Shown in pieces: positions 6,071-21,061 of a stretch of DNA of 32,000 bases. The position numbers were made by a program, and so were the translations under genes. Under the pieces are notes generated by a model. It was not told where the DNA came from, ran no database searches, and was given only the letters and a program-made list of their open reading frames with translations. Source of the DNA: Pyrodictium abyssi. GTDB lineage: Archaea; Thermoproteota; Thermoprotei_A; Sulfolobales; Pyrodictiaceae. The stretch's first letter is position 1, and the number at the start of each line of letters is the position of its first letter. The stretch spans positions 2,070,001-2,102,000 of the forward strand of contig NZ_AP028907.1 of NCBI RefSeq assembly GCF_036323395.1, written 5' to 3'.

Positions 6071-6110
6071 CACCTCCAGCCCGCCAACCTACGCATCCCG
6101 TATAACTTAA
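6071..6110 (-). promoter_or_regulatory. internal promoter/RBS of the binding-protein gene (TATA-like TTAAGTTATA + SD GGAGGTG)
   Basis: The AT-rich 157-nt spacer (6074-6230) stands out in an otherwise GC-rich operon. On the minus strand, TTAAGTTATA (6101-6110) lies ~37-46 nt upstream of ATG 6064, and the SD is at 6071-6077. Further TATA-like boxes (CTTTATATTG, CGATATATGAG) lie upstream. Confidence 0.4.
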
Positions 6111-6230
6111 ACCTTTCTCATATATCGTGTATTGCAAAACAATATAAAGAAATGATAATGTAAGTCACATATCAATGCTGGTATAGGCTAAAACGAAATA
6201 CGGAGGGGCGTGCGTGGGACTGCGGCTGGG

Positions 6231-7238: not shown

Positions 7239-7258
7239 GGCTGCCACCTCCTAGCGGG

Positions 7259-8167
7259 TTATACACGTTCGATCCTCTCGGTGCCGAAGAGCCCATAGGG
7301 CTTCACGAGCAGTACGAGTAGCATTATCATGTATGCGGCCGCCTCGTGTATACCCGTGAAGTCTATCACGCCGAACCGCAGGTAGGGCTCGAGGAACCTC
7401 ACAAGCTGCTCCGTCACGCCGAGTACGAGCCCGCCCACGATTATGCCTGCGACGGTGTCGAGGCCTGCTAGCAGGCTCGCAGCGAGCGCCTTGATCACGT
7501 AGACCTCTAGTATGGGGCTAAGGTTGGCCTTCAACGCCACGGCTATAGCCGCTAGGCCCCCCGCGGCGCCGGCGAGGCCCCAGCTCAGCATGGTGAGGAG
7601 CTTCACGGGGAGCCCGTACGCTGCCGCGCCGTAGGGGTCCTCCGCCACAGCCCTCATAGCCACGCCTAGCCTGGTCAGCCTGTGCAGCGCGACAACTATG
7701 GCCACTATGCCGGCCCCAGCGGCTATGGCGGCTATGTCGGAGGCCGAGAGCGTCACGGGGCCAGCGCGGAGGCTAAACTCGCTACGGAGCAAGCTAGCCT
7801 GAGGTATGCTACCTCCAGCCACGAACATGGACACGCCCTTCAGCACGTAGTACACGCCGAGCGTGGCGGCGATCAGCGCTATGGGGGGACGGCCTCTCAG
7901 CGGCCTAGCGACAAGCCTCTCCGTAGCGGCGCTGACCGCGAAGCCCACAGCGAGGGCGGCTAGAGTTCCGGCAGCGAGCCCAAGCCCGGCTCTAACAGCC
8001 GCGATGTAGGCTACGGTGGCCGATAGCAGGACTAGCGCTGGGTGTGCGAAGTTTATCGACTTGCTTACACGGTATACTATGTTGAAGCCTAGCGCTAGCG
8101 CTGCGTAGACCACGCCCATTATCGAGCCCGCTACTATGTACGAGACTAGCTGGCCGAGCTCGCCCAT
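7259..8167 (-). CDS. livH: LIV-type ABC transporter permease (LivH-like)
   Basis: Polytopic membrane ORF of LivH type (INFAHPALVLLSATVAY...). ATG 8167 follows GAGGGTG by 6 nt, and the track GTG 8176 lies inside the SD-like box. Confidence 0.9.
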   Translation of the reverse strand: MGELGQLVSYIVAGSIMGVVYAALALGFNIVYRVSKSINFAHPALVLLSATVAYIAAVRAGLGLAAGTLAALAVGFAVSAATERLVARPLRGRPPIALIAATLGVYYVLKGVSMFVAGGSIPQASLLRSEFSLRAGPVTLSASDIAAIAAGAGIVAIVVALHRLTRLGVAMRAVAEDPYGAAAYGLPVKLLTMLSWGLAGAAGGLAAIAVALKANLSPILEVYVIKALAASLLAGLDTVAGIIVGGLVLGVTEQLVRFLEPYLRFGVIDFTGIHEAAAYMIMLLVLLVKPYGLFGTERIERV

Positions 8168-8315
8168 GGAGCCCACCCTCTAGCAGCACATGTCTATCCG
8201 CATACACTGCCTCCTCTTTCGTGCAGCACATCCTGCATACTACAGACTGCCTATACGGGTCACATGGACCTGGGGGACGGATGTAGAAAGAAGCCGTGAG
8301 CGGGACCCGGAGGGT

Positions 8316-10247
8316 TCACCCGGCTGTGAGTATCTTCACAGTCCGCGTCACCTTCACCCTCCTGCCGTCTTCGAGTCTCATCTCTACTGTCAGCTCGTAC
8401 ACCTCGTCGCCTCTGTACATGGCCTCTATGAGACCGGCGTAGCGCTCCTCGATGACCTTGCGGCGTAGCTTCCTGGTACGGGTCATCTCACCGTCGTCAG
8501 GGTGGAACTCCTTGAACAGGCTCACGAACCTCCTCACGCGTAGCTGCTCTGGCAGCCGGGAGTTGGCGCGGGCGACCTCGCGCTTCAGCAGCTCTAGCAC
8601 CTGGGGCTTCTGGCTCAAGTCGCTATAGCCGCTGAACGGTATGTTCCTCCTCTCAGCCCAGCGAGACACGGTCACGTAGTCTATGTTGAGCAGCGCCACC
8701 AGGTAGGGCCTGCCATGGCCTATTATCGCGGCCTCGGCTATGTAGGGGCTGAACTTTAGCTTGTTCTGCACTATCTGCGGCGCCACACGGGTGCCGTCGC
8801 TCAGCACGAGTATCTCCTTAGCACGGTCGTGTATCATTAGGTGCCCGTCCGGGGTCAGCTCGCCCACGTCGCCGGTGTGCAACCAGCCATCCGGGTCAAG
8901 GGTCTTCCTGGTAGCCTCCGGGTTCTGGTAGTAGCCCTTCATAACCGCGGGGCTGCGTAGCAGTATCTCGCCGTCCTCGGCTATCCTTATCTCCGTCTCG
9001 GGCAGCGGCTTGCCCACCGTGTCTAGCCTCACGTCGTCGTCCGGGTGGACCACAGCGATGCCCGCTATCTCGGTCTGGCCGTAGATCTGCTTCAGGTTCA
9101 CACCCAGCGCGTGGAAGTACCTAACGTAGTCGGGGCCGAGCATCGCGCCGCCGGTGTAGGCGCGCTTCACCCTCTTCAGCCCAGTCTTGTCCAGTATACC
9201 GCGGAGCGCTAGCCAGTACGCAAGGTACCAGGCTATCCTCCAGCCCAGGCTCGGCGCCCGGCGGCCGGGCCTCAGCCGGGACTCGGCAGCCCGCCAGCCG
9301 ATCCACATGGCTATCCTGTAGAACAGCTTCTTCACGGGGTCACTATCCTCCATCCTGGCCATGACGTCCTTGGCTATCCTCTCCCATATCCTGGGCGGCG
9401 CGAAGAGGAAGTGCGGCGCTATCTCGCGGAAGTCCCTCCAGAACGTCTCCGGGCTCTCGGGGAAGTTCACCCGGAACCCCGCTATGAAGTGTAGCGCTAT
9501 GCTCATCATCTGCTCTCCTACCCAGGCCGGCGGCAGGAACGACACGTACTCCCAGCTGGGGTCCACCGGGTCTAGCTGGTTCAGCTGATAAGCCATGGCC
9601 AGCAGGTTCCGGTGGGTCAGCATAGCCAGCTTAGGCTTCCCAGTCGTGCCACTGGTCGTGAAGAGCCCGGCCACGTCCCCGGGGTCTAGGTCGCCTGTGA
9701 GCTTGTCGTAGAGCCCAGGGCTCTGCCCCTCGAGGGCCTGCCCGGTCTTGACCAGGTCGCCGAAGGTTATGATTAGGTCTCCCAGCTTATCGCGGTACAT
9801 GTGGAGGCCCTTAGCCTCGTCAACCACTATCTTCTCGACCCGCGTCTTGTCTAGGACCTCGAGTACGCGGTCTAGCTGCTCCTGGCCCTCCACGAGCACT
9901 ATCCTGGCGTCGCTCTGCTGGAGGACATAGGCCACCTCGTCGCTCAGGCTATCCTTGTATATGCCCACGGTTGCGGCGCCGAGGCTCTGCACAGCAACCT
10001 CGTAGATGGGCCACGCGGGCCGGTTGCCCATTATGAACGCGGCCTTGTCGCCCCTGCCTATGCCTAGGCTGTAGAGGCCTAGCGCGGTCCACCGGACTAG
10101 CCTGTAGTACTCGCTCCAGGTGAAGCGGCGCCACACACCGTACCGCTTCCAGCGGAACGCTGTCGCCTCGGGCCTCTCCCGGGCCCGGGCCTCTAGCAGC
10201 CAGGGGAACGTAGTGTCGTAGGGCCTAGCACCGTTGCCCTGGGTCAT
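8316..10247 (-). CDS. long-chain acyl-CoA synthetase (ANL superfamily, FAA1/FadD-like, 643 aa) embedded in the ABC operon
   Basis: Canonical AMP-binding motifs: TTSGTTGKPKLAMLTH, YGQTE, TGDVGELTPDGHLMIHDRAKE and TRKLRRK. ATG 10247 is preceded by GGAGGGTG, and it lies 7 nt downstream of the livG stop. Confidence 0.9.
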   Translation of the reverse strand: MTQGNGARPYDTTFPWLLEARARERPEATAFRWKRYGVWRRFTWSEYYRLVRWTALGLYSLGIGRGDKAAFIMGNRPAWPIYEVAVQSLGAATVGIYKDSLSDEVAYVLQQSDARIVLVEGQEQLDRVLEVLDKTRVEKIVVDEAKGLHMYRDKLGDLIITFGDLVKTGQALEGQSPGLYDKLTGDLDPGDVAGLFTTSGTTGKPKLAMLTHRNLLAMAYQLNQLDPVDPSWEYVSFLPPAWVGEQMMSIALHFIAGFRVNFPESPETFWRDFREIAPHFLFAPPRIWERIAKDVMARMEDSDPVKKLFYRIAMWIGWRAAESRLRPGRRAPSLGWRIAWYLAYWLALRGILDKTGLKRVKRAYTGGAMLGPDYVRYFHALGVNLKQIYGQTEIAGIAVVHPDDDVRLDTVGKPLPETEIRIAEDGEILLRSPAVMKGYYQNPEATRKTLDPDGWLHTGDVGELTPDGHLMIHDRAKEILVLSDGTRVAPQIVQNKLKFSPYIAEAAIIGHGRPYLVALLNIDYVTVSRWAERRNIPFSGYSDLSQKPQVLELLKREVARANSRLPEQLRVRRFVSLFKEFHPDDGEMTRTRKLRRKVIEERYAGLIEAMYRGDEVYELTVEMRLEDGRRVKVTRTVKILTAG

Positions 10248-10254
10248 GGCCGGG

Positions 10255-11208
10255 TCACCCTCCTATGTAGGCTTCTATCACGCGTGGGTCGTTGGCCACC
10301 TTGTGCGGCGGCCCCTCGGCTATGACGCGGCCAGAGTCCATGACAACCACGTTGTCGCAGAGATCCATCACAACCTCTAGGTCGTGCTCCACGAGCACGA
10401 AGGAGATGCCTCGGGTCTCGTTGACCTCCACTATGGCGCGCGCTAGGTCCTCCTTCTCCTCCCTGCTGAGGCCCGCCATAGGCTCGTCCATCAGCACTAC
10501 CTTCGGGTCCTGGGCGAGCGCTCTCGCCAGGTCTACGCGCTTCTGCACACCGGGAGGCAGGCCCTCGACAATCTGGTCCCGGTACTCGTGGAGCTCGAGG
10601 AGGTCGATAGCCCTCTCAGCCTTCTCCCTCGCCCACTCCTCCCAGCGCTGGGCCCGGCGGGTCCAGAACGCGGCGTCTACTATGCTGTAGCGCCTCCACG
10701 GCTCGAGGCCCGTCATGATGTTCTCGGCTACCGTCATGTGCTTGAATAGCTCGCTGTGCTGGAAGGTCCTGGCTAGCCCTAGCTTGGCCCTCGCGTGGGG
10801 CGGGAGCCGGGTGATATCCCTGCCCTCGAACACTACTCTACCGCTCTTCGGCTTGTAGAACCCGGAGACTACGTTCAGGAGGCTGGTCTTGCCCGCCCCG
10901 TTGGGGCCTATTACGGCGAGAATCTCGCCGGGGCGTAGCCTAAAGCCCGCGTTGTCTACGGCTACTATGCCGCCGAACTCTACCCTTATGCCCTCTACTT
11001 CGAGGATGTATTCCAGCTTCCCGTGGGGCTTCTCTCTGTAGGTGCTGCTTTCCTCCCAGAGCGCTCTGTAATCGAACCTGCTCACCTCTATGCGGGGCGC
11101 GTTAGCTGCGAAGAACAAAACGCACCATCTCGCACACCTCCTGGAGTGGTCTTCAGTGTTCCCGGTAGCCCACCACTGTTCGCTACTCTTATTTAAACAC
11201 TCGCCCAA
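10255..11208 (-). CDS. livG: LIV-type ABC transporter ATP-binding protein (LivG-like); start uncertain
   Basis: Walker A GPNGAGKTS, signature-like LPPGVQKRVDLARAL, Walker B VVLMDEP and the C-terminal DPRVIEAYIGG motif typical of LivG. There is no in-frame ATG upstream of the ABC domain. TTG 11208 lies in the AT-rich promoter region, so a later start (for example GTG 11085) is more likely. Confidence 0.88.
   Translation of the reverse strand: MGECLNKSSEQWWATGNTEDHSRRCARWCVLFFAANAPRIEVSRFDYRALWEESSTYREKPHGKLEYILEVEGIRVEFGGIVAVDNAGFRLRPGEILAVIGPNGAGKTSLLNVVSGFYKPKSGRVVFEGRDITRLPPHARAKLGLARTFQHSELFKHMTVAENIMTGLEPWRRYSIVDAAFWTRRAQRWEEWAREKAERAIDLLELHEYRDQIVEGLPPGVQKRVDLARALAQDPKVVLMDEPMAGLSREEKEDLARAIVEVNETRGISFVLVEHDLEVVMDLCDNVVVMDSGRVIAEGPPHKVANDPRVIEAYIGG
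11102..11128 (-). other. SD-led 8-codon mini-ORF (MVRFVLRS) in the liv operon leader
   Basis: GGAGGTG (11135-11141), a 6-nt spacer and ATG 11128, with stop TAA at 11102-11104. It is out of frame with livG and ends 17 nt upstream of the candidate livG GTG 11085. Confidence 0.35.
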
Positions 11209-11260
11209 GACTTTAACCGGAGTTTAAACAGTATCTAGCACTATTTACATATATAAAATG
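11186..11260. promoter_or_regulatory. AT-rich divergent promoter region between the liv operon and the ANL ligase gene
   Basis: Repeated TTTAAAC/TTTAAAT boxes (ATTTAAACAC 11191-11200, AGTTTAAACA 11221-11230) and CTATTTACATATATAAAATG (11241-11260) sit in an otherwise GC-rich context. The orientation and assignment of each box are unresolved. Confidence 0.35.
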
Positions 11261-11388
11261 GGGGTGAGACCTTCCCGGCCGTAAAACATTCAAACACCCC
11301 AGACTAGCACACCGCCATACAGAGCCAGCCATAGACGAGGCGTAGTAGTCTCCCCTCCCGGAGAGGGCCACTCGATGGTGACACGGTT

Positions 11389-12834
11389 ATGGCGTGTGGC
11401 TACCCCGAGACGATGGTGGAGGCTCTCCTCTGCAGGCAAGGCGAGGCGGGCGAAAAGGAGGCGGTAGTGGACACGGAGGGCTACACACTGTCCTACGAGC
11501 AGCTACTCGCCCACGCCTCCCGCGCAGCCCGCCTGCTCTCCGAGCGCTACGGCCTCGGGGAGAACACCGTAGCCGCCGTAGCCCCGATAAACAAGGCTGA
11601 GGCCGTTATAGGCCTCTACGCTGTCTGGCTCACTGGGGCGGCAGCAGCGGTGCTCGACCCCCTGAGCCACAGCATGGACCTCGAGATGCAGCTACGCCAG
11701 GCAGAGCCCAGGCTCATGATAACCCACAAGGGGATGGAGGAAGCCCACTGCACGGTCGCGGAGAAGCTCGGAGCCCGCTGCATAGCGGCCGAGGACCTGG
11801 CCAGAGAGGCCGGGGACGGCGCCCCCTGGGAGGGCTACACCAGGCCACGGGCATGGGACACAGCAGTGATCTACTTCTACGCCGGGATAGCCGGCCGGAC
11901 ACTGCCAGTGCTCCACACCCACTCCGGGATAGCAGCGTCAGCGCACACCGTGGTAGCCCACTACGGCCTAGGGCCCGAAGACAGGGTGTTCGCCTCGGCG
12001 CCGATAAGCCACGCCCTAGGGCTACAAATATCCATGCTCTCCGCGCTCTATGCCGGAGGCACAGCGGTCCTCTACACGAAGAGGGGCCGCCTAAACCCAG
12101 CCCACGCCGCAGAGGCGCTAGCCTCAAGCCGGGCCTCCATGGTCCTGGGGGCGCCGGGCTTCTACCAGGCAATACTCCGTGCGGGCTACCGTGGCCACGA
12201 GGCGCTACGCTACGCGGTTAGCGCGGGCGCGCCACTGCCAAGGGAGACGCAAGAGGAGTGGATGAAGGCTACCGGGGTGGAGCTTCTACAGCTCTACGGC
12301 ATGACCGAGGCGGCGCCGCTCACTGCGACGCTTCCCGGCGACAACCCGCCCGGGAGCATAGGGAAGCCCATGCCCGGCGTTGAGGCGCGTCTCGCCGACC
12401 CTGGGAACCCGGAGAAGCCTGCCGAGGGCGCTGGGGAGCTCCTAGCCCGCGGCCCAATGGTGATGCGGGGCTACAGCGAGCCCGAGGAGACGAGGCGCGC
12501 GGTCCTGCCCGGCGGCTGGCTGCGCACCGGCGACATACTCGCGGTCGACGAGGAGGGCCACTTCTACTTCCGCGGCGTCCGCAAGAGGATGCTCAAGTAC
12601 AAGGGGTACCCGATATTCCCCAGGGACCTCGAGCTGATACTGGAGCAGCACCCTGCCGTCGCCCGCGCAGTGGTCGAGGGCGAGCCGGCTGGCGACCTCG
12701 GCCAGATACCGGTAGCCAGGGTGTGGCTTCGGCGCGGTGCTTCGGCGACAAGGGAGGAGCTGCTAAACTGGGTTAACAGCCGTGTAGCGAGCTATAAGCA
12801 GGTGCGGCGCCTAGAGATAGCAGGCGAGGAGTAG
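11389..12834 (+). CDS. ANL-superfamily acyl/aryl-CoA ligase-like protein with degenerate P-loop
   Basis: Motifs LYGMTEA, LRTGDILAVDEEGHFYFRGVRKRMLKYKGYPIFPRDLE and SYKQVRRLE identify the fold. The usual (S/T)SG(S/T)TGxPKG loop is replaced by YAGIAGRTLPV (nt 11872-11910). Confidence 0.85.
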   Translation: MACGYPETMVEALLCRQGEAGEKEAVVDTEGYTLSYEQLLAHASRAARLLSERYGLGENTVAAVAPINKAEAVIGLYAVWLTGAAAAVLDPLSHSMDLEMQLRQAEPRLMITHKGMEEAHCTVAEKLGARCIAAEDLAREAGDGAPWEGYTRPRAWDTAVIYFYAGIAGRTLPVLHTHSGIAASAHTVVAHYGLGPEDRVFASAPISHALGLQISMLSALYAGGTAVLYTKRGRLNPAHAAEALASSRASMVLGAPGFYQAILRAGYRGHEALRYAVSAGAPLPRETQEEWMKATGVELLQLYGMTEAAPLTATLPGDNPPGSIGKPMPGVEARLADPGNPEKPAEGAGELLARGPMVMRGYSEPEETRRAVLPGGWLRTGDILAVDEEGHFYFRGVRKRMLKYKGYPIFPRDLELILEQHPAVARAVVEGEPAGDLGQIPVARVWLRRGASATREELLNWVNSRVASYKQVRRLEIAGEE

Positions 12835-12930: not shown

Positions 12931-13107
12931 ATGGTGAAAGAGAACCAGGTTTCGAGGGACAATAGACCTAAGTTCGTCCACGTACGGGGCATAGGGTTCT
13001 CGGCACTGATACCTCTAGAGAGCTACCAGAACGGCTTGCGCGAACTAGTAGAGTCCATATACGGTAAGGTGCGCGTGAAAGTAGTAGATATAGAAGAGAA
13101 GATATAG
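12931..13107 (+). CDS. 58-aa hypothetical protein (below the ORF-track length cutoff)
   Basis: ATG 12931 is preceded by AGGGTG and a 5-nt spacer. The translation is MVKENQVSRDNRPKFVHVRGIGFSALIPLESYQNGLRELVESIYGKVRVKVVDIEEKI, with balanced, non-low-complexity composition. It lies in a low-GC stretch and no family was recognised. Confidence 0.4.
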   Translation: MVKENQVSRDNRPKFVHVRGIGFSALIPLESYQNGLRELVESIYGKVRVKVVDIEEKI

Positions 13108-13177: not shown

Positions 13178-13513
13178 TTGGCCCACCGGTGCTGCCGCAG
13201 CGGGTACCCCGTCGAGGCATGCAGGATACTTGAGATGCTCCTTCGAGGGTACTACAGCTACTTCTCCCGCGACGTCCTGAATAGTGATGGCCGTAGACTC
13301 TTCGAGCGAATGGTGAAGCTGCTCCTCGACTCTAACCCGGGTCTACGTCGCCTGATATACCGTGTGAGACGCGACCCCACTATAGAGATGATTCTCCGGC
13401 TGGCTGAGGAGTTCTATAGCTGTAATGCCCGGCTCATGGTAGCCGAGTCTCTGGGGCTGCGGCAGCCCTACGCCTACAGGTTGTCGACCGCGGCTGGAGA
13501 CCACTACTACTAG
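13178..13513 (+). CDS. small helical protein with possible C-terminal helix-turn-helix
   Basis: 111-aa ORF from TTG 13178, or 92 aa from ATG 13235 (MLLRGYYSYFSRDV...). The C-terminal segment NARLMVAESLGLRQPYAYRL resembles an HTH recognition unit. No family was recognised. Confidence 0.5.
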   Translation: MAHRCCRSGYPVEACRILEMLLRGYYSYFSRDVLNSDGRRLFERMVKLLLDSNPGLRRLIYRVRRDPTIEMILRLAEEFYSCNARLMVAESLGLRQPYAYRLSTAAGDHYY

Positions 13514-13609: not shown

Positions 13610-13614
13610 AAAAA
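13610..13614 (-). terminator. oligo-T tract downstream of the Trp-rich ORF
   Basis: The minus strand reads CCATGTTTTTACC about 40 nt after the stop at 13655. Archaeal terminators are oligo-T tracts, but this is a single short tract. Confidence 0.25.
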
Positions 13615-13654: not shown

Positions 13655-13978
13655 CTAGTCCTTCTTTCCACTGATGTCTTCCCGTCTATTCCACCATGAC
13701 CACCAGTATAGCCAGCGGCACCATCCTCTGCCTAGGAGCCAGCCGGGCCTCTGCCATGGTGGAAGGTGGCTCCACGGCCCGCGGCCCGGCCATGGGCCGG
13801 TTACCGACGCCTGGCGGCTAGCTTGCTCCTGCAGTGGCTCTGGCGGTAGCGGTGGCTGTTCTGCTCTGCCGGCCTGCTGTGCCTGAAGCCACCACCAGCC
13901 CCAGCTGCGCCCCCATCCTCTTCCGCGCTGCCAGCCTCCCATTCCCCATCTTCTTCCGCGTCCCCATCCCCATGGCAT
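13655..13978 (-). CDS. 107-aa Trp/Gly/Arg-rich low-complexity protein, unknown function
   Basis: ATG 13978 is preceded by a perfect GGAGGTG (13988-13994) with a 9-nt spacer. The 107 codons are open despite 19 TGG codons. The track GTG at 13990 lies inside the SD. The sequence is MPWGWGRGRRWGMGGWQRGRGWGRSWGWWW...GPWPGRGPWSHLPPWQRPGWLLGRGWCRWLYWWSWW... Confidence 0.6.
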   Translation of the reverse strand: MPWGWGRGRRWGMGGWQRGRGWGRSWGWWWLQAQQAGRAEQPPLPPEPLQEQASRQASVTGPWPGRGPWSHLPPWQRPGWLLGRGWCRWLYWWSWWNRREDISGKKD

Positions 13979-14164
13979 CTCGGTGTACACCTCCTACCAG
14001 AGCGCTCCAAACATTGCATGTAGCATACGCGCCTTGCATAAGCGTTTCTCCCGGCACGACAGCGCCCGGAATCAAGCCCCGGGGGCCGGGCGGCCCCGGG
14101 CTGCGGCAATGCTTACAGCACCGGGGGCTGTAGCAGGAACGAGTGGAGGAGGGGATGCAGCGGC

Positions 14165-14926
14165 ATGGGCAAGATAATAGTGGTGTTTGTGGGGCCTGCC
14201 GGCTGCGGTAAGTCGACACTAGTAGCGGCTTACTCCAAGTGGCTACGAGAGGGCGACGCAAGCGTCTACACGGTTAACATGGACCCGGCGGCGGAGACGC
14301 TGCCATACGAGCCTAGCCTAGACGTGAGGGGCATCGTGGACGCTAGGGAGGTCGCGCGGAAGTACGGGCTCGGCCCCAACGGGGCGCTCGTCAAGAGCAT
14401 GGAGCTCATAGCCGAGAGGCTAGAGGAGATAACATCCAGAGTAGCGGCTGCCGAAGCGGACTACGTGCTGGTGGACACGCCGGGCCAGATGGAGGTATTC
14501 CTCTTCCGCGACCTATCCTGGAGGCTCGCCGAGGCCCTCCGGGGGATCAGCCCCGAGAGCTACGCGGTATTCGTCCTAGACGCCTCGGTGATAAGGGACC
14601 CTGCGGACTACGCGTTCCTAGTAACCATGGCCACGGCGGTGCAGCTCCGCCTAGGGCTCGAGACGGCCCCCGTGCTCAACAAGATAGACCTAGCGCCAGG
14701 CCTGGAGATCACGGGCGACCTGCTACGCGACTTCGGCCGCGTCTCCCGCGCGCTACGCGAGTCCGGCAGCGTCTACGCCGAGATGCTACGCGAGATGCTG
14801 CGCGTACTGCTCAAGTACAACCGGCGCGTAGAGGTCCCCCAGGTCTCGGCGCTAAAAGGCGAGGGCATGGAGGAGCTACACCGCCTCGTGCTCGAGATGA
14901 GCTGCAGCTGCGGCGACCTCAGCTGA
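14165..14926 (+). CDS. GPN-loop GTPase
   Basis: Walker A GPAGCGKST, the diagnostic GPN motif (YGLGPNGAL), DTPGQME (G3) and NKID (G4). The ATG is preceded by GGAGGAGGGG. Confidence 0.9.
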   Translation: MGKIIVVFVGPAGCGKSTLVAAYSKWLREGDASVYTVNMDPAAETLPYEPSLDVRGIVDAREVARKYGLGPNGALVKSMELIAERLEEITSRVAAAEADYVLVDTPGQMEVFLFRDLSWRLAEALRGISPESYAVFVLDASVIRDPADYAFLVTMATAVQLRLGLETAPVLNKIDLAPGLEITGDLLRDFGRVSRALRESGSVYAEMLREMLRVLLKYNRRVEVPQVSALKGEGMEELHRLVLEMSCSCGDLS

Positions 14927-16196
14927 GCAGTCCCCGTGGGTCTACTATCCTGCCCTCAGCAGCGGCGGCGGCAGCCGTGTAGGGCGAGGCGAGGTAGACC
15001 CGGGCGCTCGGAGCCCCCATGCGGCCCGGGAAGTTCCTGTTACTAGTAGAGACCACTACCTCGCCTTCGCCGGCAACCCCCATGTGGGCGCCGAAGCACG
15101 CTGCGCAGCCCGGCGGCGCTATGACGGCGCCGGCCTCGTGGAGTATCTCGAGTAGCCCGGTGCGGAGGGCCTTCTCGTAGACCCTCCTGCTGGCTGGAGC
15201 CACTATGAGCCGGGTGCGGGCTCTGCGGCCTTTGAGTATCCTTGCGGCGGCCTCTAGGTCCTCGTAGCGGCCGTTGGTGCAGCTCCCTATGAACACCTGG
15301 TCGACCTCTAGGCCCTCGACCTCCTCCACGGGGGCTACGTTGTAGGGCGCCGGGGGCTCGGCCACCATGGGCCCGGTCTCGCCGAGGTCTAGCTCTAGGC
15401 TGTCCGCCCCCAGCTCGGGCTCGACCCGTAGCCTCTTGGCTTCTCTTGGGGGCTCGCGGCCCCGCACGGCCCGGTACCACTCGGCCGCCGTCCTGTCGAA
15501 GGGGAATAGCGCGGTCTTAGCCCCGGCCTCGACCATCATGTTGGCCACGGTGAGCCTGTCGCTAACCGGCAACGCTGCTACGCCCGGCCCGTGGAACTCC
15601 ACGCTCCGGTAGATGGCGCCGTCGCCGCCTAGGACGCCTAGGAGCCTTAGCACGAAGTCCTTGCCCGTAACGCCCTCGGGCAGCCTGCCCTCGAGCCTGA
15701 CGTAGAGCGGCTCAGGGACCCTTAGCCAGAGCCTCCCAGTGGCCATAGCGTAGGCTGCCTCAGTGCTCCCTATCCCAGTCGAGAAGACCGAGAGGGCACC
15801 GTAGGTTATGGTGTGGCTGTCAGCGCCGAGGACGAGCCAGCCCGGCTCCACGAGCTCCTCCACAGCAGCCTGGTGCATCACACCGTAGCCGACATCCCAT
15901 AGAGTACAGCCACGCTCCCGGGCGAAGAGCCGGAGGCGCCGGTGCCCCGTAGCGGTTGCAGCTGTCGGCGCTGGGCTGTAGTGGTCGAAGGCTATCACTA
16001 CCTGGGGCCGCTGCCTCCGGCAGTCAACGAGCCCATCCGCCCCCGTCTCCTCCAGCACACGGAGCGCCAGGAGCCCGGTGACATCGTTCACGAGCACAGC
16101 GTCTGGCTCGACTACGGCTATGTCGCCGGGCCCGAGCCCGTCCCTGGGCTTCTCGACCGCGTGCTCCTCTATGATCCTCTGCGCGAGGCTCGCCAC
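14919..16196 (-). CDS. leuC: 3-isopropylmalate dehydratase (or homoaconitase) large subunit
   Basis: Aconitase-family motifs GADSHTITYG and IGSCTNGRYEDL plus a Cys ligand region. GTG 16196 is preceded by GGAGGTG (16204-16210). Its 3' end overlaps the convergent GPN gene by 8 nt. Confidence 0.9.
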   Translation of the reverse strand: MASLAQRIIEEHAVEKPRDGLGPGDIAVVEPDAVLVNDVTGLLALRVLEETGADGLVDCRRQRPQVVIAFDHYSPAPTAATATGHRRLRLFARERGCTLWDVGYGVMHQAAVEELVEPGWLVLGADSHTITYGALSVFSTGIGSTEAAYAMATGRLWLRVPEPLYVRLEGRLPEGVTGKDFVLRLLGVLGGDGAIYRSVEFHGPGVAALPVSDRLTVANMMVEAGAKTALFPFDRTAAEWYRAVRGREPPREAKRLRVEPELGADSLELDLGETGPMVAEPPAPYNVAPVEEVEGLEVDQVFIGSCTNGRYEDLEAAARILKGRRARTRLIVAPASRRVYEKALRTGLLEILHEAGAVIAPPGCAACFGAHMGVAGEGEVVVSTSNRNFPGRMGAPSARVYLASPYTAAAAAAEGRIVDPRGLLS

Positions 16197-16217
16197 GCCC
16201 CAGCACCTCCGGCAAGG

Positions 16218-17345
16218 CTACTGGATGAACTTCGCCACGGCCCGGGCATAATCCATTGTAGAGAGGCCTCCGCCCAGGTCCGGGGTCGTGAAGCCAGCTG
16301 CGAGCGCCTGCTCCACGGCCAGCTCCATCCTCGAGGCTGCCTCGCGGTAGCCCAGGTACTCGAGCATCATAGCCGCGGAGAGGATCATTGCAGTCGGGTT
16401 GGCCACCCCCTTCCCAGCGATATCCCATGCAGCGCCGTGCACCGGCTCGAAGAGCGCCTTCCCATCGCCTATGTTCGCCGAAGGGGCTAGCCCGAGGCCC
16501 CCAGCAACCTGGGCCGCTAGGTCGCTGAGAATATCACCGTACTGGTTCATGGTGAGCACTACGTCGAAGCGCGAGGGGTTGCGGACCATCTCCATCGCGG
16601 CAGCGTCGACATACATCTCGTCAACGGCTACACCCTCCTCCTCTAGGACACGGCGCGCCACGTCCCGGAACAAGCCGTCGGCGACCCGCAGCACGTTAGC
16701 CTTATGGACTATGGTCACGCGGCCTGAGCGGGAGGAGGCGTAGCGTGCAGCTACGCGTGCCACCCGCCGGGTACCCTCCTCCGTCACCACCTTCACGGCG
16801 AACGCGGCGCCGGGCACACTGAACTCTATACCCGCGTAGACGTCCTCCAGGTTCTCCCGCACTATCACCAGGTCTATCGGCGCGACGCTCACGACCCCGG
16901 GGAGGCTGCGGGCCGGACGAATGTTAGCGTAGACGCCTAGCTCCCTCCTCAGCACCACAACAACGTCCCGCGCGGTCTCGCCGACCGGGCCCTTGAGCAC
17001 AACGTCAGCCCAGTTCTTAGCTAGGCGCAGCGTCTCGCTTGGCAAGGGCTCGCCGTACTTGCGGGCAGCAGTATCCCCTGCCTCGGCGTAACGTATCTCA
17101 AGGTCTATCCCGTACATGTCTAGAGTCTTCTCGAGCACGTACATAGCGGCATCTGTTACCTCGGGGCCTATACCGTCACCTGGTATGACTAGCACCCGCG
17201 GAACCGCCAAGGGATCCCACACCACCGCTACACAGCTATTCCGTGGACTCCGGTCGTGCCCCAAGCCCCTGATGCGGAGCCAGGGGCCATGGCATAGGCA
17301 TGCGAGGCGGATGCCCCTAGCTACAGCCTTAGGTGGTACAGCCAT
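16218..17345 (-). CDS. leuB: 3-isopropylmalate dehydrogenase (or homoisocitrate dehydrogenase); N-terminus probably shorter
   Basis: VLVIPGDGIGPEV, NQYGDILSDLAA and GLAPSANIG are typical of the beta-decarboxylating dehydrogenase family. Homology begins about 50 codons after the track ATG 17345, which has no SD. Candidate starts are GTG 17225/17222, TTG 17210 and GTG 17195. Confidence 0.88.
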   Translation of the reverse strand: MAVPPKAVARGIRLACLCHGPWLRIRGLGHDRSPRNSCVAVVWDPLAVPRVLVIPGDGIGPEVTDAAMYVLEKTLDMYGIDLEIRYAEAGDTAARKYGEPLPSETLRLAKNWADVVLKGPVGETARDVVVVLRRELGVYANIRPARSLPGVVSVAPIDLVIVRENLEDVYAGIEFSVPGAAFAVKVVTEEGTRRVARVAARYASSRSGRVTIVHKANVLRVADGLFRDVARRVLEEEGVAVDEMYVDAAAMEMVRNPSRFDVVLTMNQYGDILSDLAAQVAGGLGLAPSANIGDGKALFEPVHGAAWDIAGKGVANPTAMILSAAMMLEYLGYREAASRMELAVEQALAAGFTTPDLGGGLSTMDYARAVAKFIQ

Positions 17346-17434
17346 GACTATGGGGAGGGGTTAGGTGGCACTGGAAAGAACCAGGGGTGAGGGGCGAGGC
17401 GTGCTAGCCTGCGTATACTGTCTGCCTGGGGCGC

Positions 17435-18580
17435 CTAGACTGGCCTTGGATAAGGCGTCTCAGCACGTCGCTCCATGTACTCGTTTATCCAGCGGACTAT
17501 TATGTCCTCGCTGACCTTCTTCATCCTCGGCGCGTTCTCCTTCAGCCTGTCCAGGATGTACTTCACGAGCGCTGGCTCCGGGGTCACGCCGATGCTCTGG
17601 AGAGCCCATTCGACCGCGGCGCGGCCGCTGTGGCGCCCCAGGACTATCCGCCGACGGTTGCCTACAGCCTCGGGCGGCAACGGCTCGTACGTTGCAGGGT
17701 TCTTCAGCACACCGTGCACGTGTATACCAGCCTCGTGGGCGAACGCGTTACGCCCCACAATCGCCTTGTTAGGAGGCGTCTCTACACCGAACTTGCTCGC
17801 CACTAGCCGCGACACGGGCGTTAGCAGCTCCATTCGGATGCCAGTGCTGCGGTCCATGAGGTAGTGTAACGCAGCCACGACCTCCTCTAGCGCGGCGTTG
17901 CCAGCTCTCTCGCCGAACCCGTTCACAGTGACCTGGACGCCGTCTGCCCCCGCCCTAACGCCGGCCAACGTATTAGCAGTAGCCATGCCGAAGTCGTCAT
18001 GGCAGTGTACGTCTATCCAGACCCAGGACGGGAGACTCCTCCTTATGAGGCCCACAAGCCACTCCATATACCAGGGGGTCGCGGTGCCCACGGTGTCCGG
18101 TATGTTTATGTAGCTAGCACCAGCCTCGACAACGCTCCGGTATATCCTAACGAGGAACCCAGGGTCGCTCCTCGTCGCGTCCTCGGCCGAGAATAGGACG
18201 GTAGCGCCGTAGCTCCGCGCCCGCTCGACCGCCTCGACAGCCCGTTCCACCACCTGGTCCCGTGTCATCCTCAGCTTGTACTTCATGTGCACGTCGCTGG
18301 TGGCTATGAACACGTGGATTATGTGTGCTTCAGCCGCTGCCGCCTCGTCCACGTCGCGTGGATGGGCCCTGGCAAGGGCGGCGATCCTGGCTCTAGAGGC
18401 CTCCCTGACAGCTGCTCTCACGGCTCTACGGTCTATCTCGGAGGAGGCGGGGAACCCAGCCTCTATCACGTCGACGCCAAGCTCGTCGAGGGCTCGTAGA
18501 ATCTCTATCTTGTCGTAGAAGTCTAGCTCTATTCCAGGCATCTGGTCTCCGTCACGGAGGGTTGTATCGAAGACCCTTAT
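17435..18580 (-). CDS. leuA: 2-isopropylmalate synthase-family enzyme (IPMS/homocitrate/citramalate synthase), short form; non-canonical start
   Basis: HCHDDFGMATANTLAG, the FIATSDVH region and EAGIHVHG identify the DRE-TIM family. The track start ATG 18541 would remove the in-frame upstream IRVFDTTLRDGDQ. The frame is open back to TGA 18611-18613 with no ATG/GTG/TTG, so I extend it to the ATA codon at 18580-18578 (see findings). Confidence 0.8.
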   Translation of the reverse strand: MRVFDTTLRDGDQMPGIELDFYDKIEILRALDELGVDVIEAGFPASSEIDRRAVRAAVREASRARIAALARAHPRDVDEAAAAEAHIIHVFIATSDVHMKYKLRMTRDQVVERAVEAVERARSYGATVLFSAEDATRSDPGFLVRIYRSVVEAGASYINIPDTVGTATPWYMEWLVGLIRRSLPSWVWIDVHCHDDFGMATANTLAGVRAGADGVQVTVNGFGERAGNAALEEVVAALHYLMDRSTGIRMELLTPVSRLVASKFGVETPPNKAIVGRNAFAHEAGIHVHGVLKNPATYEPLPPEAVGNRRRIVLGRHSGRAAVEWALQSIGVTPEPALVKYILDRLKENAPRMKKVSEDIIVRWINEYMERRAETPYPRPV

Positions 18581-18604
18581 GCGAGTTCCATTTTCGACTG
18601 CACC
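18581..18604 (-). promoter_or_regulatory. 24-nt leader cassette, leuA copy (GGTGCAGTCGAAAATGGAACTCGC on the minus strand)
   Basis: It is the exact reverse complement of plus-strand 18857-18880. It is extended 5' to a full GGAGGTG (18601-18607) and contains ATG 18591-18589, which opens MELA-stop (18591..18577). Confidence 0.6.
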
Positions 18605-18670
18605 TCCGTCTCATGCCCGATGGAGTTCCGGCTTCTTGGCTGGGCCGGGGACACCGGGTGCCCACAACCG

Positions 18671-18724
18671 TCTATTTAAGCGTTGCCTTCCGCATTTTGG
18701 AGTTATACGGAAAACGTTTTAATA
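18671..18724. promoter_or_regulatory. candidate divergent TATA boxes for leuA (CTTAAATAGA on minus, 18671-18680) and ilvB (TTTTAATA, 18717-18724)
   Basis: These are the only AT-rich boxes in the 310-nt leuA-ilvB spacer. The assignment is positional only. Confidence 0.35.
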
Positions 18725-18800
18725 GGGGAAGCCGGTGGGCAGGCCTACCCGACGCCCTTCTAGGCCGCTAGGCGGCTCCGCCAGACCGGAGGTGGTCTCG

Positions 18801-18821
18801 ATGTCAAACGTCCCCATGTAG
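18801..18821 (+). other. SD-led mini-ORF 1 in the ilvB leader (MSNVPM)
   Basis: GGAGGTG at 18788-18794, a 6-nt spacer, ATG 18801 and stop TAG at 18819-18821. Confidence 0.4.
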
Positions 18822-18836
18822 CTGGAGGTGGTCCAG

Positions 18837-18854
18837 ATGTCAAACATTATGTGA
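18837..18854 (+). other. SD-led mini-ORF 2 in the ilvB leader (MSNIM)
   Basis: GGAGGTG at 18824-18830, a 6-nt spacer and ATG 18837. The stop TGA 18852-18854 overlaps the in-frame GTG 18851 of the ilvB ORF. Confidence 0.4.
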
Positions 18855-20629
18855 GGGGTGCAGTCGAAAATGGAACTCGCGTGGTAGACCACATAGCCCG
18901 TGTTCTAAAAGACCTGGGCGCCACCCAGGTCTTCGGGGTAACCGGCGGCAGCATAATGGGGCTCTTCGACGCGCTAGCGCTCGAGGACTTCGAGATCTAC
19001 ATGTTCCGCCATGAGCAGGGAGCGGCGCACGCAGCCGACGCCTACGGCAGGATAGCCCGCAGGCCGGGAATAGCACTAGCAACAAGCGGCCCAGGCGCCA
19101 CGAACCTTGTAACCGGCATAGCTAACGCCTACTTCGACTCCGCGCCCATGCTGGCTATCACCGGGCAGGTACCGACAAGCGTCTTCGGCCGCGACGCCTT
19201 CCAGGAGACAGACATCGTGGGCGTAACGGCGCCGATAACCAAGTTCGCCTACCAGGTGAAGAGGCCAGAAGAAGCCGGCCCGGCCATAAGAACGGCGTAC
19301 AGGCTCGCGGTCGAGGGGAGGCCTGGCCCCACTCTCATCGACCTACCCAGAGACGTGCAGCTAGTACGCTACGAGCCAGTGGACGAGCCCGAGTATCTCC
19401 CAATAGACTTCGCCAAGTATCAGCCGCCGAAGCCCGACCCGGAGGCTGTTGCTAGCGCTGCACGCCTACTACTCGCGGCGGCAAGGCCCGTAATCCTGGT
19501 CGGTGCTGGTGTATACTGGTCCGGGGCTACAGCCGAGGTCATAGAGCTCGCTGAGCGGCTACAGGCGCCCATAGTGACAACACTCCCCGGCAAGAATGCT
19601 GTCCCTGCAGACCACCCCCTAGTGCTAGGCCCAGCTGGGATGCACGGCCGTGCAGAAGCGGACGCTGCTCTCGCTAACGCCGACGTAGTGCTCGCTGTAG
19701 GCACTAGGTTCTCCGACCGTACCGTTGGCAGGTTTGGGCCAGAGCTACGCGAGAAGAAGATAATCCACATAGACATCGACCCCAGTGAGCACGGCAAGAA
19801 CGTGCCACCAGCTGTGAGCATTGTGGCTGATGCGCGGGAGGCGCTCCAGGCAATACTCCGCGAGATGAAGGTGGTGCCTAAGCGCGACGGGAGGTTCATC
19901 GAGTGGCTGCTCTGGATACGCCGCCGCTACGAGGACGCTATGGAGAAGCTAGCGGCCCGGATGAGGAAGTTCGCGCCCTGGAAGGTGTTGAAGACGCTCA
20001 GGCAGGCAGTGCCGCGCAATACGATAACCGTCACTGGTGTGGGCAGCCACCAGATGTGGTCAGAGATACACTGGGACGTATACGTGCCCGGCACCTGGGT
20101 GACGAGCGCAGGCCTAGGCACGATGGGGTTCTGTGTCCCGGCAGCGCTCGGCGCCAAGATAGCTGCGAGGGACCGCCCAGTACTCTGCATCGATGGCGAC
20201 GGGAGCTTCCAGATGACTATGAATAACCTGGCCCTCGTGAGGGACTACGACCTACCCATAATAGTGACAGTATTCGACAACCGTGCGCTCATGCTGGTAA
20301 AGCAGTGGCAGATATTCCTCTACGACCGGAGGATAGTAGCTACCGAGTACAGCAAGTGGCCCGACTTCACGAAGATAGCTGAGGCCTACGGGATAGAGGC
20401 GATACGCCCAGCAAGCCTAGAGGAGATCAACGCAGCAGTACGCCGCGCTATCCGGAACAATGAGCCCCTCATAGTAGTGGTGGACATAGACAACAACGAG
20501 GACATAGTGCTGCCATGGGTGAAGCCCGGCGACTGGCTGACAGACGCGATACTGCCGCCCGGGATGGAGGATGTCAGCCTCGTTTTCCGCGAGGAGAAGC
20601 TAACAGCTGCCCCCGCAGCTGGGAGGTGA
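18851..20629 (+). CDS. ilvB: acetolactate synthase (acetohydroxyacid synthase) large subunit
   Basis: ThDP-enzyme motifs: VFGVTGGS, HEQGAAHAADAYGR and IDGDGSFQMTMNNLA. Family N-termini align from about GTG 18881 (VDHIARVLKDLG...). Whether GTG 18851 or GTG 18881 is used is unresolved. Confidence 0.9.
   Translation: MRGAVENGTRVVDHIARVLKDLGATQVFGVTGGSIMGLFDALALEDFEIYMFRHEQGAAHAADAYGRIARRPGIALATSGPGATNLVTGIANAYFDSAPMLAITGQVPTSVFGRDAFQETDIVGVTAPITKFAYQVKRPEEAGPAIRTAYRLAVEGRPGPTLIDLPRDVQLVRYEPVDEPEYLPIDFAKYQPPKPDPEAVASAARLLLAAARPVILVGAGVYWSGATAEVIELAERLQAPIVTTLPGKNAVPADHPLVLGPAGMHGRAEADAALANADVVLAVGTRFSDRTVGRFGPELREKKIIHIDIDPSEHGKNVPPAVSIVADAREALQAILREMKVVPKRDGRFIEWLLWIRRRYEDAMEKLAARMRKFAPWKVLKTLRQAVPRNTITVTGVGSHQMWSEIHWDVYVPGTWVTSAGLGTMGFCVPAALGAKIAARDRPVLCIDGDGSFQMTMNNLALVRDYDLPIIVTVFDNRALMLVKQWQIFLYDRRIVATEYSKWPDFTKIAEAYGIEAIRPASLEEINAAVRRAIRNNEPLIVVVDIDNNEDIVLPWVKPGDWLTDAILPPGMEDVSLVFREEKLTAAPAAGR
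18857..18880 (+). promoter_or_regulatory. 24-nt leader cassette, ilvB copy (GGTGCAGTCGAAAATGGAACTCGC)
   Basis: It is the perfect inverted-repeat partner of 18581-18604. It contains ATG 18870, which opens MELAW-stop (18870..18887), and it ends directly before GTG 18881. Confidence 0.6.
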
Positions 20630-20635
20630 TAGCTC

Positions 20636-20887
20636 GTGGCCAGCCAGTGCACCGGGATATACGTGATAGAGGTATCCGCGTTCAACGGGATGGACGCCGT
20701 AATGAGGCTAAGCAATATGGCGCGCCGAGCTAAGCTAGAGTACCGCAACATATCCGCCAGCTTCGATGGCAGAGTGGTCCGGCTGAGAATAGAAGCGGCT
20801 GGCGAGGAGAAGGAGGTACACTGGCTAGCAGCCAAGATGGAGAGGATGCCCGAGGTCTACGCGGTAGCAGCCAAGAGGCTATCGTGA
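20636..20887 (+). CDS. ilvN: acetolactate synthase small (regulatory) subunit, short single-ACT form
   Basis: 83-aa ORF 6 nt after the ilvB stop, with a strong SD (GGGAGGTGAT) 5 nt before the GTG. It has an ACT-like beta-alpha-beta pattern. The call rests mainly on position and size. Confidence 0.7.
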   Translation: MASQCTGIYVIEVSAFNGMDAVMRLSNMARRAKLEYRNISASFDGRVVRLRIEAAGEEKEVHWLAAKMERMPEVYAVAAKRLS

Positions 20888-20890
20888 AGA

Positions 20891-20930
20891 GCCCCCGGGG
20901 CTGGGTGGCGCCGCGCCCCTTCCCCGGGGC
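20891..20930 (+). terminator. GC-rich inverted repeat followed by a T-rich run after ilvN
   Basis: GCCCCCGGGG...CCCCGGGGC arms are followed by CACTACTTTCTTG. This is weak, because archaeal termination usually needs longer T tracts. Confidence 0.25.
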
Positions 20931-21061
20931 CACTACTTTCTTGAGTGCAAGGCCTCTCTCCCCACAAACCTACAGCTATATGGATACTTATACCATATGT
21001 CTATGGTATTGTGAGTCGAGGTGGGAAGCCTCGGATACGAGGAGTCGGGGGTGGAGACACC

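Follow-up and report, generated by a model that had tools for sequence, protein, structure and literature searches.

A tryptophan-rich small protein of Pyrodictium abyssi, its archaeal relatives and a possible role in iron-sulfur handling

Storage and movement of iron and sulfur in archaeal anaerobes are poorly understood. IssA (PF2025), the iron-sulfur storage protein of Pyrococcus furiosus, is the only characterized protein that stores thioferrate, and its tail is the part understood least. This tail of 70 amino acids (aa) is predicted to be unstructured, has an isoelectric point (pI) of 10.7 and consists of a Pro-rich stretch followed by a cationic, aromatic, Gly-rich region; its conserved key residues are Trp, Gly and Arg, arranged as a repeat pattern, and the only Cys of the protein also lies in it (PMC5524996). 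It was proposed by the authors to wrap anionic thioferrate, (FeS2-)n, electrostatically, with aromatic contacts stabilizing the interaction, and electrostatic binding by the tail was described as a mode which 'does not require precise positioning' (PMC5524996). Another described type of small protein, canonical DUF5320 (PF17253), has the N-terminus MPxGDxTGPxGxGPMTGRxxGYCAGY with a single invariant Cys, and its bacterial genes are found in the order DUF5320, PF02579 (twice) and CbiA/Fer4 (twice), with Fur, a metallo-beta-lactamase-fold gene and FeoA nearby. The present study deals with a Trp-rich gene for a protein of 107 aa that lies in a stretch of 32,000 nucleotides (nt) of the Pyrodictium abyssi genome (contig NZ_AP028907.1, positions 2,070,001 to 2,102,000; in the following called the window, with all coordinates given within it). 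As judged by profile searches, its product is the Pyrodictiaceae member of a family of small proteins (60-130 aa) that is found only in archaea.

Gene status and the archaeal head family

The coding sequence and the signals around it are located as follows.

13655..13978, minus strand: coding sequence, with ATG at 13978, TAG stop at 13657-13655 and 107 codons plus TAG
13988..13994, minus strand: Shine-Dalgarno-like GGAGGTG, 9 nt ahead of the ATG; in the ortholog GGGGTG at the identical 9-nt spacing
13610..13614, minus strand: oligo-T tract (T5), a candidate archaeal terminator, 40 nt past the stop; in the ortholog TTTTATT about 30 nt past the stop

An earlier note on this DNA had proposed an open reading frame (ORF) from ATG 13978 with GGAGGTG 9 nt upstream and a T5 tract about 40 nt downstream, which was confirmed with the two motifs at 13994-13988 and 13614-13610, and its count of 19 W, 18 G, 14 R and 12 P in 107 residues is exact. 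W, G and R together account for 48% of the protein and Trp alone for 18%. GTG 13990, the start of a longer listed ORF, was rejected as start codon, as it falls within the Shine-Dalgarno motif and all homologs begin with M-x-W-G. TGG makes up 1.6-2.4% of the codons in any frame of the window, and the Trp content is far beyond chance, because the binomial P for at least 19 such codons in 107 is 8e-12 against this frequency. Of all 240 ORFs in the window that span at least 60 codons from stop to stop it is the most Trp-rich one (17%), followed by one with 12% and the rest with at most 6%.

The best relative found in the databases is P0001, a hypothetical protein of 99 aa with identical three-part architecture from a metagenome-assembled genome of a Pyrodictium sp., the gene of which lies on a contig of 1.7 kb (L085), divergent to a fragment of a GPN-loop GTPase gene that is 87% identical to the one in the window. 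A codon alignment of the window gene with this ortholog yielded a nonsynonymous rate (dN) of 0.25, a synonymous rate (dS) of 0.85 and a dN/dS of 0.29, with all three indels being whole codons and a dN/dS of about 0.29 in the N-terminal box as well as in the core. When 65 different DNA versions of the core (24 codons, GC content of 49-79%) from other archaea were compared, the mean entropy at codon positions 1, 2 and 3 was 0.31, 0.18 and 1.29 bits, respectively. Long spurious ORFs are common at a GC content of 60-65%, several overlap the region of this ORF and one antisense frame is open in the ortholog too, all of which would fit a frame that is just a by-product of the high GC content or the shadow of a gene read in a different frame. 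We regard this explanation as effectively refuted: it is contradicted by the low dN/dS with in-frame indels, by the dominance of the third codon position in the variation among the 65 core versions over the whole range of GC contents, by the match to a family profile at an E value of 2.4e-12 (see below) and by the Shine-Dalgarno motif, its spacing and the oligo-T tract, which are all kept in the ortholog. Because of the ortholog comparison, the in-frame indels, the third-position variation and the profile match, the ORF is, by these substitution patterns, a genuine gene of the expressed type with its minus-strand frame under selection. The statement of the earlier note that such a TGG-rich frame is unlikely to be a by-product is borne out by the binomial P and the dN/dS. 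It had also raised the possibilities that related genomes conserve one of the overlapping frames instead or that the region is not conserved at all; it is the minus-strand frame that is conserved, in the 65 core versions and in the ortholog, and in the Pyrodictium sp. the gene keeps its place beside the GPN-loop GTPase together with its Shine-Dalgarno motif.

Searches with Rfam, for tRNAs and with Tandem Repeats Finder yielded nothing that explains the ORF region, and a scan for sigma-70 promoters and terminators was uninformative, since it is inapplicable to archaea. The coding strand contains nine runs of at least 3 G, with six G3-G5 tracts within 80 nt of the mRNA (13889-13978). A G-quadruplex element as the primary feature was dismissed, as no canonical four-tract G3+ motif with loops of at most 12 nt was present, looser G2 motifs being found; the G runs are probably a side effect of the TGG-GGN codons of the WG repeats. 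A coding region as rich in W and G as this one could readily be taken for noise.

Members of the family carry a head in which a short Trp-Gly-Arg box (typically MAWGWGRGRRGW) is followed by GPWPGRGPFSHLPPWQRPGW and then by L-[FY]-G-R-G-x-C-W-W-L. In an alignment of 41 sequences, 13 positions are invariant and 8 more, the Cys among them, are conserved in at least 90%. A profile search, as had been suggested for this ORF, was performed with a head-only hidden Markov model (HMM) built without the window protein and P0001; it matched residues 59-98 of the window ORF with 62.4 bits (E of 2.4e-12 at Z = 1.8e9), the next-best ORF of the window scoring 8.4 bits. The first protein search gave 59 matches, and a genome scan revealed at least 285 confirmed family loci, 80 of which were retained. 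These 80 belong to Bathyarchaeia, Nitrososphaeria, Thermoprotei (Desulfurococcales, Sulfolobales, Thermofilaceae, Thermoproteales), Korarchaeia, Brockarchaeota, Methanomethylicota, Asgard lineages, Archaeoglobaceae, Methanocellales, Thermoplasmata and Aenigmatarchaeota. A HMMER pass over 1.84e9 representatives resulted in 88 clusters at 50% identity, a few of them spurious repeat proteins. No bacterial or viral member was seen in the protein search, among the genome-scan matches listed or in the viral scan, and two metagenome scans for orthologs of the Pyrodictiaceae type yielded no relatives.

In line with the earlier note, which had not been able to assign the protein to a family directly, Pfam searches matched it only to DUF5320 (E of 8.3) and NCBIfam, PADLOC and PHROGs to nothing. 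A sequence search of the PDB with the family profile gave chance matches only (lignin peroxidase and prefoldin, E > 2), and in the literature library searched no functional study turned up under the motif strings, DUF5320, DUF134 or the Pfam accessions, and no paper contained the motif strings. Neither Pfam nor NCBIfam has a model for the family, which is undescribed and represents a variant of the DUF5320 kind with a swapped head. Its members differ in their tails, which can be a Glu/Lys coiled coil, a Tyr/Pro/Trp-rich segment (about 41 of 76 loci), a zinc ribbon (Asgard) or a Cys-rich or ferredoxin-like module.

The protein from the window can be divided into the following parts.

13889..13978, minus strand: N-terminal WG/RG box, aa 1-30, MPWGWGRGRRWGMGGWQRGRGWGRSWGWWW, net charge +6
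13911..13969, minus strand: internal direct repeat, with 26-nt copies at 13911-13936 and 13944-13969 that are 81% identical and 33 nt (11 codons) apart
13805..13888, minus strand: Gln/Pro/Glu/Ala-rich linker, aa 31-58 (28 residues), in the alignment an insertion only in this protein and its Pyrodictium ortholog
13685..13804, minus strand: conserved head module, aa 59-98, ..GPWPGRGPWSHLPPWQRPGWLLGRGWCRWLYWW, from profile match and codon-position entropy
13658..13684, minus strand: charged C-terminal tail, aa 99-107 (RREDISGKK D), standing where relatives have coiled-coil, Tyr/Pro-rich or zinc-ribbon tails

All 13 family-invariant residues are present (G61, W63, P64, G65, G67, L72, P73, P74, R77, P78, G79, W80 and G83), as is the single Cys87 after GRG (codon 13718-13720). 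The box, MPWGWGRGRR.., is present as well, but it is duplicated and separated from the core by the 28-residue linker; compared with the M-x-W-G-W-G-R-G-R-R-G-W box of 8-15 residues typical of the family it is an enlarged form. With a dN of 0.65 vs 0.14-0.16 in the flanks (window gene against ortholog), the linker evolves fast. The repeat structure and the alignment indicate that the WG/RG repeats are a lineage-specific duplication of the box and that the conserved part is the core. The label of an unassigned WG/RG-repeat protein given in the earlier note therefore has to be replaced, since the informative part is GPWPGRGPWSHLPPWQRPGWLLGRGWC, the almost invariant core of the family, and the box is short in most members. 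By its alignment, the protein is an atypical member, with a duplicated box, an inserted linker and no coiled coil, and the window copy is the least informative one of the family.

Gene neighbourhood of the relatives and possible roles

The function of the protein had been called completely open in the earlier note, whereas an iron-sulfur hypothesis can now be based on the gene neighbourhood of the relatives, on fused domains and on what has been published about the IssA tail (PMC5524996). According to it, the protein could be a polycation like the IssA tail, but free-standing, and could work with NifX-like carriers on anionic iron-sulfur species. Iron-sulfur binding appears to be the most likely role because the relatives almost always adjoin genes for iron-sulfur handling, and by analogy to IssA we put the proposal forward tentatively, with somewhat less than an even chance of being correct.

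For the neighbourhood analysis, ORFs within 4 kb of the family gene were clustered for 75 non-redundant loci and the clusters were named by Pfam. At least one of DUF134, PF02579 and MinD/Fer4 was found in 62 of the 75 loci and some recurrent partner in 72. Proteins of the Nitro_FeMo-Co/NifX-like type (PF02579) are encoded in 44 loci and MinD/CbiA ATPases with two 4Fe-4S ferredoxin motifs in 36. The adjoining NifX-like proteins match the PDB structures of MTH1175, TM1290 and the orange protein (ORP) of Desulfovibrio (2wfb), and 34 of the 85 NifX-cluster ORFs of related loci contain a 30-residue stretch with at least 45% W+G+R. In Thermococcales-like loci the gene order is radical S-adenosylmethionine (SAM) protein, two MinD-Fer4 proteins, NifX-like protein, head protein of 68 aa and head protein of 61 aa, followed by a NifX-like protein with a GRGRGMG tail, a metallo-beta-lactamase-fold protein, FeoA (twice) and FeoB. 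FeoA/B or DtxR genes were present within 6 kb in 10 of the 80 archaeal loci. Members outside of such clusters occur elsewhere too, namely in two loci of Archaeoglobaceae, in one of Korarchaeia (at a contig edge) and in about ten of Thermoproteota with a Tyr/Pro-rich partner only.

Several fusions link proteins of these types directly. The fusion proteins of a thermoplasmatal locus (L070:5629-6231; DUF134, head and coiled coil) and of one from Aenigmatarchaeota (L084:995-1576; head, coiled coil and PF02579) were both confirmed by Pfam. A third one combines the coiled coil, a GW/RG stretch and PF02579 (L011:6193-6891), and P0125 consists of head, coiled coil and a ferredoxin-like CxxCxxC end. 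As a separate observation, a Cys-rich C-terminal module (C-x-H-[YF]-x-N-G-x-C ... [AT]-C-P-[FS]-F) is found both in an IssA-like NifX protein of 205 aa (L093:4112-4729) and in the tails of P0049 and P0078, which suggests, from the motif common to them, that tails may have been exchanged between IssA-like NifX and head-family proteins.

The most frequent neighbour is DUF134 (PF02001), a helix-turn-helix protein similar to sigma-70 region 4, which is encoded in 48 of the 75 loci at a median distance of 191 bp and often divergently. This raises the strongest rival to an iron-sulfur role, namely that of a nucleic-acid-binding or regulatory partner, in which the RG/WG box would act like an RGG box and the head would pair with DUF134 to regulate the iron-sulfur operon, in Pyrodictiaceae in trans. 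Besides the frequency of DUF134, the fusion of DUF134 and head (L070), the net charge of +10 and the RG repeats argue for it, and DUF134 and DUF5320 proteins of Methanosarcina mazei have been flagged for an RG-type G-quadruplex-binding motif (PMC7565180). However, in the bacterial canonical loci it is Fur that fills the slot of the upstream regulator, so that DUF134 may simply be the regulator of the operon and head or DUF5320 its first gene. Furthermore, the fusions to PF02579, Fer4-like and Cys-rich modules favour the metal-handling side, no DUF134 gene is present in the window, and the assignment in the G-quadruplex study is a motif match only. Taken together, we consider a nucleic-acid role unlikely.

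Radical SAM proteins and proteins with metallo-beta-lactamase fold were found in 15 and 14 of the 75 loci, respectively. Together with the small size of the protein, its highly conserved core and the variable remainder, these enzymes could point to a precursor or substrate of the type of ribosomally synthesized and post-translationally modified peptides, which would be modified by one of them. Such a role seems very improbable to us, as most loci, and the window too, lack these enzymes, the conserved element is N-terminal with structured domains as tails, unlike in a leader-core peptide, and protease or transporter genes do not recur in the loci.

With regard to composition, the window protein (12.9 kDa, pI of 11.75, net charge of about +10, grand average of hydropathy (GRAVY) of -1.2) contains 17% Gly, 19% aromatic residues, 13% Arg and one Cys (Cys87), and its charge lies mainly in the box (+6) and the core (+4). 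AlphaFold2 models calculated with family alignments did not show a globular fold for it (mean predicted local distance difference test score (pLDDT) of 66.6). For a typical member the mean pLDDT was 68.6; in both models the head reached 56-73, and only the coiled coil was predicted with confidence (87-95). With this low confidence for the head, matches of a fold search would be meaningless. Helices were predicted in the window protein with low confidence for residues 21-38 and 83-106, covering the Trp-rich stretches.

These predicted helices, together with the 18% Trp with interleaved Arg, would be compatible with a protein of the membrane interface, the Trp/Arg segments of which (RWLYWWSWWNRR and GWGRSWGWWW) enter the lipid headgroups and thereby anchor the protein or perturb the membrane. 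MinD-type proteins often work at membranes, and a related sub-motif, RFPWLPRWWW, presumably resembles tritrpticin and indolicidin. Nevertheless, the protein contains neither a signal peptide nor a transmembrane segment and has a low GRAVY, its best-conserved part is Gly/Pro-rich and not amphipathic, the genomic context is that of cytoplasmic metallocluster proteins, and the PADLOC and PHROG searches gave no match pointing to a toxin or a defence function. A membrane role is therefore regarded as improbable.

The iron-sulfur hypothesis, on the other hand, is in line with several properties that are common to the protein and the published IssA tail: a pI of at least 9, few Cys, a Gly-, aromatic- and Arg-rich composition and a predicted lack of structure, all of which are found in the window protein. 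While the IssA tail is linked to a PF02579/IPR003731 domain, the relatives of the window protein have PF02579 proteins as neighbours or fusion partners, many of which carry such tails, and the partner gene set of the head family is that of the IssA-clade proteins (PMC8351635, PMC5524996). When the box and linker of the window protein were compared with cationic extensions of NifX-like proteins, the scores were 4-8 standard deviations above shuffles, with one tail at 3.1, and for 7 of the 8 none of 300 shuffles reached the score, the sequences being of low complexity. Pyrodictiaceae are sulfur-reducing hyperthermophiles. This corresponds to the physiological setting in which issA of Pyrococcus is induced (PMC5524996).

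Regarding the mechanism, each step of which we infer from composition and context of the relatives, the disordered Trp/Gly/Arg polycation would wrap or cap thioferrate-like (FeS2-)n chains or clusters on NifX-like carriers. The Arg residues would neutralize the charge of the iron-sulfur species and the Trp residues would stack, with Cys87 as a possible end-ligand or a contact sensitive to the redox state. For a conserved partner, the invariant head may provide a specific site of docking or nucleation, and the W/R-rich flanking segments may provide non-specific binding of polyanions as well as self-association. In the Pyrodictiaceae version, the box is duplicated, the core is preceded by an inserted flexible Gln/Pro linker, the coiled coil is absent and the gene stands outside of the usual cluster of partners. 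A further-reaching and rather doubtful possibility, again drawn by analogy, is that the head family, the window gene being a reduced member of it, represents a new class of free-standing small proteins acting on iron-sulfur mineral or clusters, with the invariant Gly/Pro/Trp/Arg motif of 27 residues and its one Cys nucleating or capping anionic iron-sulfur polymers and the Trp/Arg-rich or Tyr/Pro-rich flanks of low complexity driving the formation of storage particles or condensate-like bodies.

A number of observations weigh against an iron-sulfur role of the protein or against its connection to the described systems. The window itself does not show the context of the relatives: a tblastn search of the 32 kb with DUF134, NifX-like, MinD/Fer4, radical SAM, metallo-beta-lactamase-fold and small-partner queries yielded nothing convincing, and the genes around the ORF are those for a GPN-loop GTPase, leu/ilv enzymes, a liv transporter and acyl-CoA ligases. 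The link to IssA rests on the published description of composition and not on an alignment, and by the published proline count the IssA tail cannot hold the full head motif. The shuffles used for the comparison with NifX-like tails ignore block structure and may thus overstate the similarity of the low-complexity box and linker. Aligned by hhalign, the head profile and canonical DUF5320 gave a probability of 1.9%, which is not significant, with only LPPWQRPG placed over LPGWARxG, and because of this value homology of the two N-termini is not claimed. Finally, 13 invariant residues fit poorly to purely electrostatic binding, so that the head would have to recognize something specific.

A gene frequently found next to family members should be mentioned separately. 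Directly 3' of head genes with Tyr/Pro-rich tails, 29 loci contain a Tyr/Pro-rich ORF of about 65-75 aa (e.g., L002:5266-5478, L004:5279-5476 and L079:6198-6413), with a spacing of 0-20 nt in 28 of them. These partners of about 70 aa have a conserved helix, ..YYxxxYxEMYRxxIDAWRKxxExxxK, and no Pfam, PADLOC or PHROG match, and from this motif look like another undescribed family of small proteins. A third gene of this Tyr/Pro module (about 105-125 aa; L002:5511-5864, L004:5489-5815 and 21 other loci) encodes a protein with Trp/Arg N-terminus, Pro/Gln stretch and a coiled coil of the DUF5320 type. In Thermoproteota, judged by these ORFs, the parts of DUF5320 appear to be divided over three adjacent genes.

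The Pyrodictium locus

Two further features lie upstream of the gene.

14001..14060, minus strand: upstream block GTCGTGCCGGGRGAAACGCTTATGC...CTACATGYAATGTTTGGARCGCT, from visual comparison with the Pyrodictium sp. locus L085
14165..14926, plus strand: GPN-loop GTPase (PF03029), divergent from the ORF and the only neighbour kept with the Pyrodictium ortholog

The 60-nt block at 14001-14060 is common to the window and L085, with the flanking intergenic DNA being different, and may represent a candidate promoter or regulatory region common to the divergent pair of the Trp-rich gene and the GPN-loop GTPase gene. Apart from the ortholog locus L085, a tblastn search found homologs of the GTPase in 2 other fetched loci only, in one of them about 5.7 kb away. 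The GTPase was dismissed as a functional partner, as a homolog is present in only these 2 further loci, and its adjacency is read as probable inherited synteny. Its gene converges with that of an aconitase-family protein (14919-16196, minus strand), the 3' ends overlapping by 8 nt (14919-14926).

The regions from 4715 to 12834 and from 14919 to 23782 encode a branched-chain amino-acid ABC transporter of the liv type, two AMP-binding ligases and a leu/ilv cluster, consisting of an aconitase-family large subunit, isopropylmalate/isocitrate dehydrogenase, HMGL-like synthase, acetolactate synthase, ketol-acid reductoisomerase (KARI) and dihydroxy-acid dehydratase. No sign of a mobile element was seen in these two regions, which represent ordinary chromosomal housekeeping. 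Downstream of the Trp-rich gene and convergent with it are two ORFs on the plus strand, 13178-13513 (111 aa) and 12931-13107 (58 aa), without a match in Pfam, PADLOC or PHROGs. In the 111-aa product, the C-terminal segment looks like a helix-turn-helix. Both are absent from the short contig of the ortholog, where a glycosyltransferase gene is found instead.

Comparison with known systems

The earlier note had seen a vague resemblance to DUF5320. This holds for the family: 10 of 41 relatives match PF17253, hybrids of both types exist and the operon type is common to both. For the window protein itself it does not, as it reaches 8.1 bits (E of 8.3) vs the gathering cutoff of 27 bits, which is below membership, and has no coiled coil. 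Among the relatives, P0009 (35.4 bits), P0016 (30.3 bits) and P0003 (27.9 bits) exceed the cutoff, and the matches usually span GRGxC and the coiled coil, sometimes almost the whole model. In the hybrids P0112, P0143 and P0148 the head is combined with the canonical middle motif of DUF5320 (GRGFGRGRGW-RNxYWATGxPGW) and the coiled coil; a search seeded with the Helarchaeota hybrid P0140 gave 3 proteins only. The window protein lacks both the canonical N-terminus and the C-terminal coiled coil of DUF5320 (..EExxMLKEQAKxMQEELxxINERIKELEK), its predicted helix 83-106 being the Trp-rich segment, and from these features it is a head without coiled coil. By eye, GP-x-G-x-GP ... GRG-x-C is common to both N-termini, with an insertion of 12 residues in the archaeal head.

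Both types are small, rich in Gly, Arg and aromatic residues and have a conserved Cys just past G-R-G/A, and for the loci of the head family the operon with NifX-like and MinD/CbiA-Fer4 proteins can be added. This operon type (PF02579 and MinD/CbiA-Fer4) is seen for canonical DUF5320 and for most head loci, but not in the window. They differ in that the head family has GPWPGRGPF..LPPWQRPGW at the N-terminus and in that all named members, among the matches listed, are archaeal. Further alternative heads, (W)RCRWFPWLPRWWWTGxYGP and MGYRWRRMYYLTGLPGW, are found on DUF5320-type coiled coils in family loci. These combinations suggest a modular family with a common coiled coil and operon and interchangeable Gly/Pro/Trp/Arg-rich heads, most of them with a single Cys.

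Two additional motifs were observed at these loci. The second Trp-rich motif, C-[RAQ]-[RW]-F-P-W-L-P-R-W-W-W (L057:8211-8411, L060:6777-7070, L064:5105-5368 and L081:3903-4151; P0054, P0058, P0098 and P0111), is found behind the head in one subfamily and otherwise forms a small protein of its own with the DUF5320 coiled coil. L057, L060, L080 and L081 contain yet another head, MGYRWRRMYYLTGLPGWLRFGYSPGW.

Low-complexity regions with RGG/RG boxes and GW/WG repeats in eukaryotes are alike in that RG and WG dipeptides recur within a basic segment for which disorder is predicted. This likeness comes with no evidence of homology, and the archaeal proteins differ in that the conserved element is a 27-residue motif in a prokaryotic metallocluster context. 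The partners of the head family, namely single-domain PF02579 proteins and paired MinD/CbiA ATPases with ferredoxin inserts, are of the types found in the operons of the ORP complex in Desulfovibrio (Orp3/Orp4, MinD-like with 2x[4Fe-4S]; Orp8, the orange protein; Orp9, MrpORP; PMC6345978). The consulted parts of PMC6345978 mention no subunit of the DUF5320 or head type for this complex, and genes of the ORP type are absent from the window.

From Asgard and DPANN archaea to Thermoproteota, the 27-residue motif hardly varies, and it swaps with other heads on the DUF5320 coiled coil. DUF5320, DUF134 and operons for single-domain NifX-like and MinD-ferredoxin proteins are widespread among anaerobes, and the family offers a small, mutable target, in which one Cys and a few Trp and Arg residues can be exchanged, for the study of archaeal iron-sulfur storage and of three widespread uncharacterized domains. 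In terms of annotation, a class of genes labelled 'hypothetical' wherever named is rescued; the copy in the window was itself absent from the protein collection and from the genome-scan matches listed.

Compared with IssA, the window protein does not contain a PF02579/NifX-like domain, none is encoded nearby, and it is hence not a member of the IssA family. The head is also far more conserved, whereas the IssA tail is conserved only within Thermococcales (PMC5524996). Should the head family indeed form the new class outlined above, the cis-acting tail of IssA in Thermococcales, so far the only known example, would be joined by a trans-acting system that reaches across many archaeal phyla and that in the sulfur-reducing Pyrodictiaceae would work without a dedicated operon.

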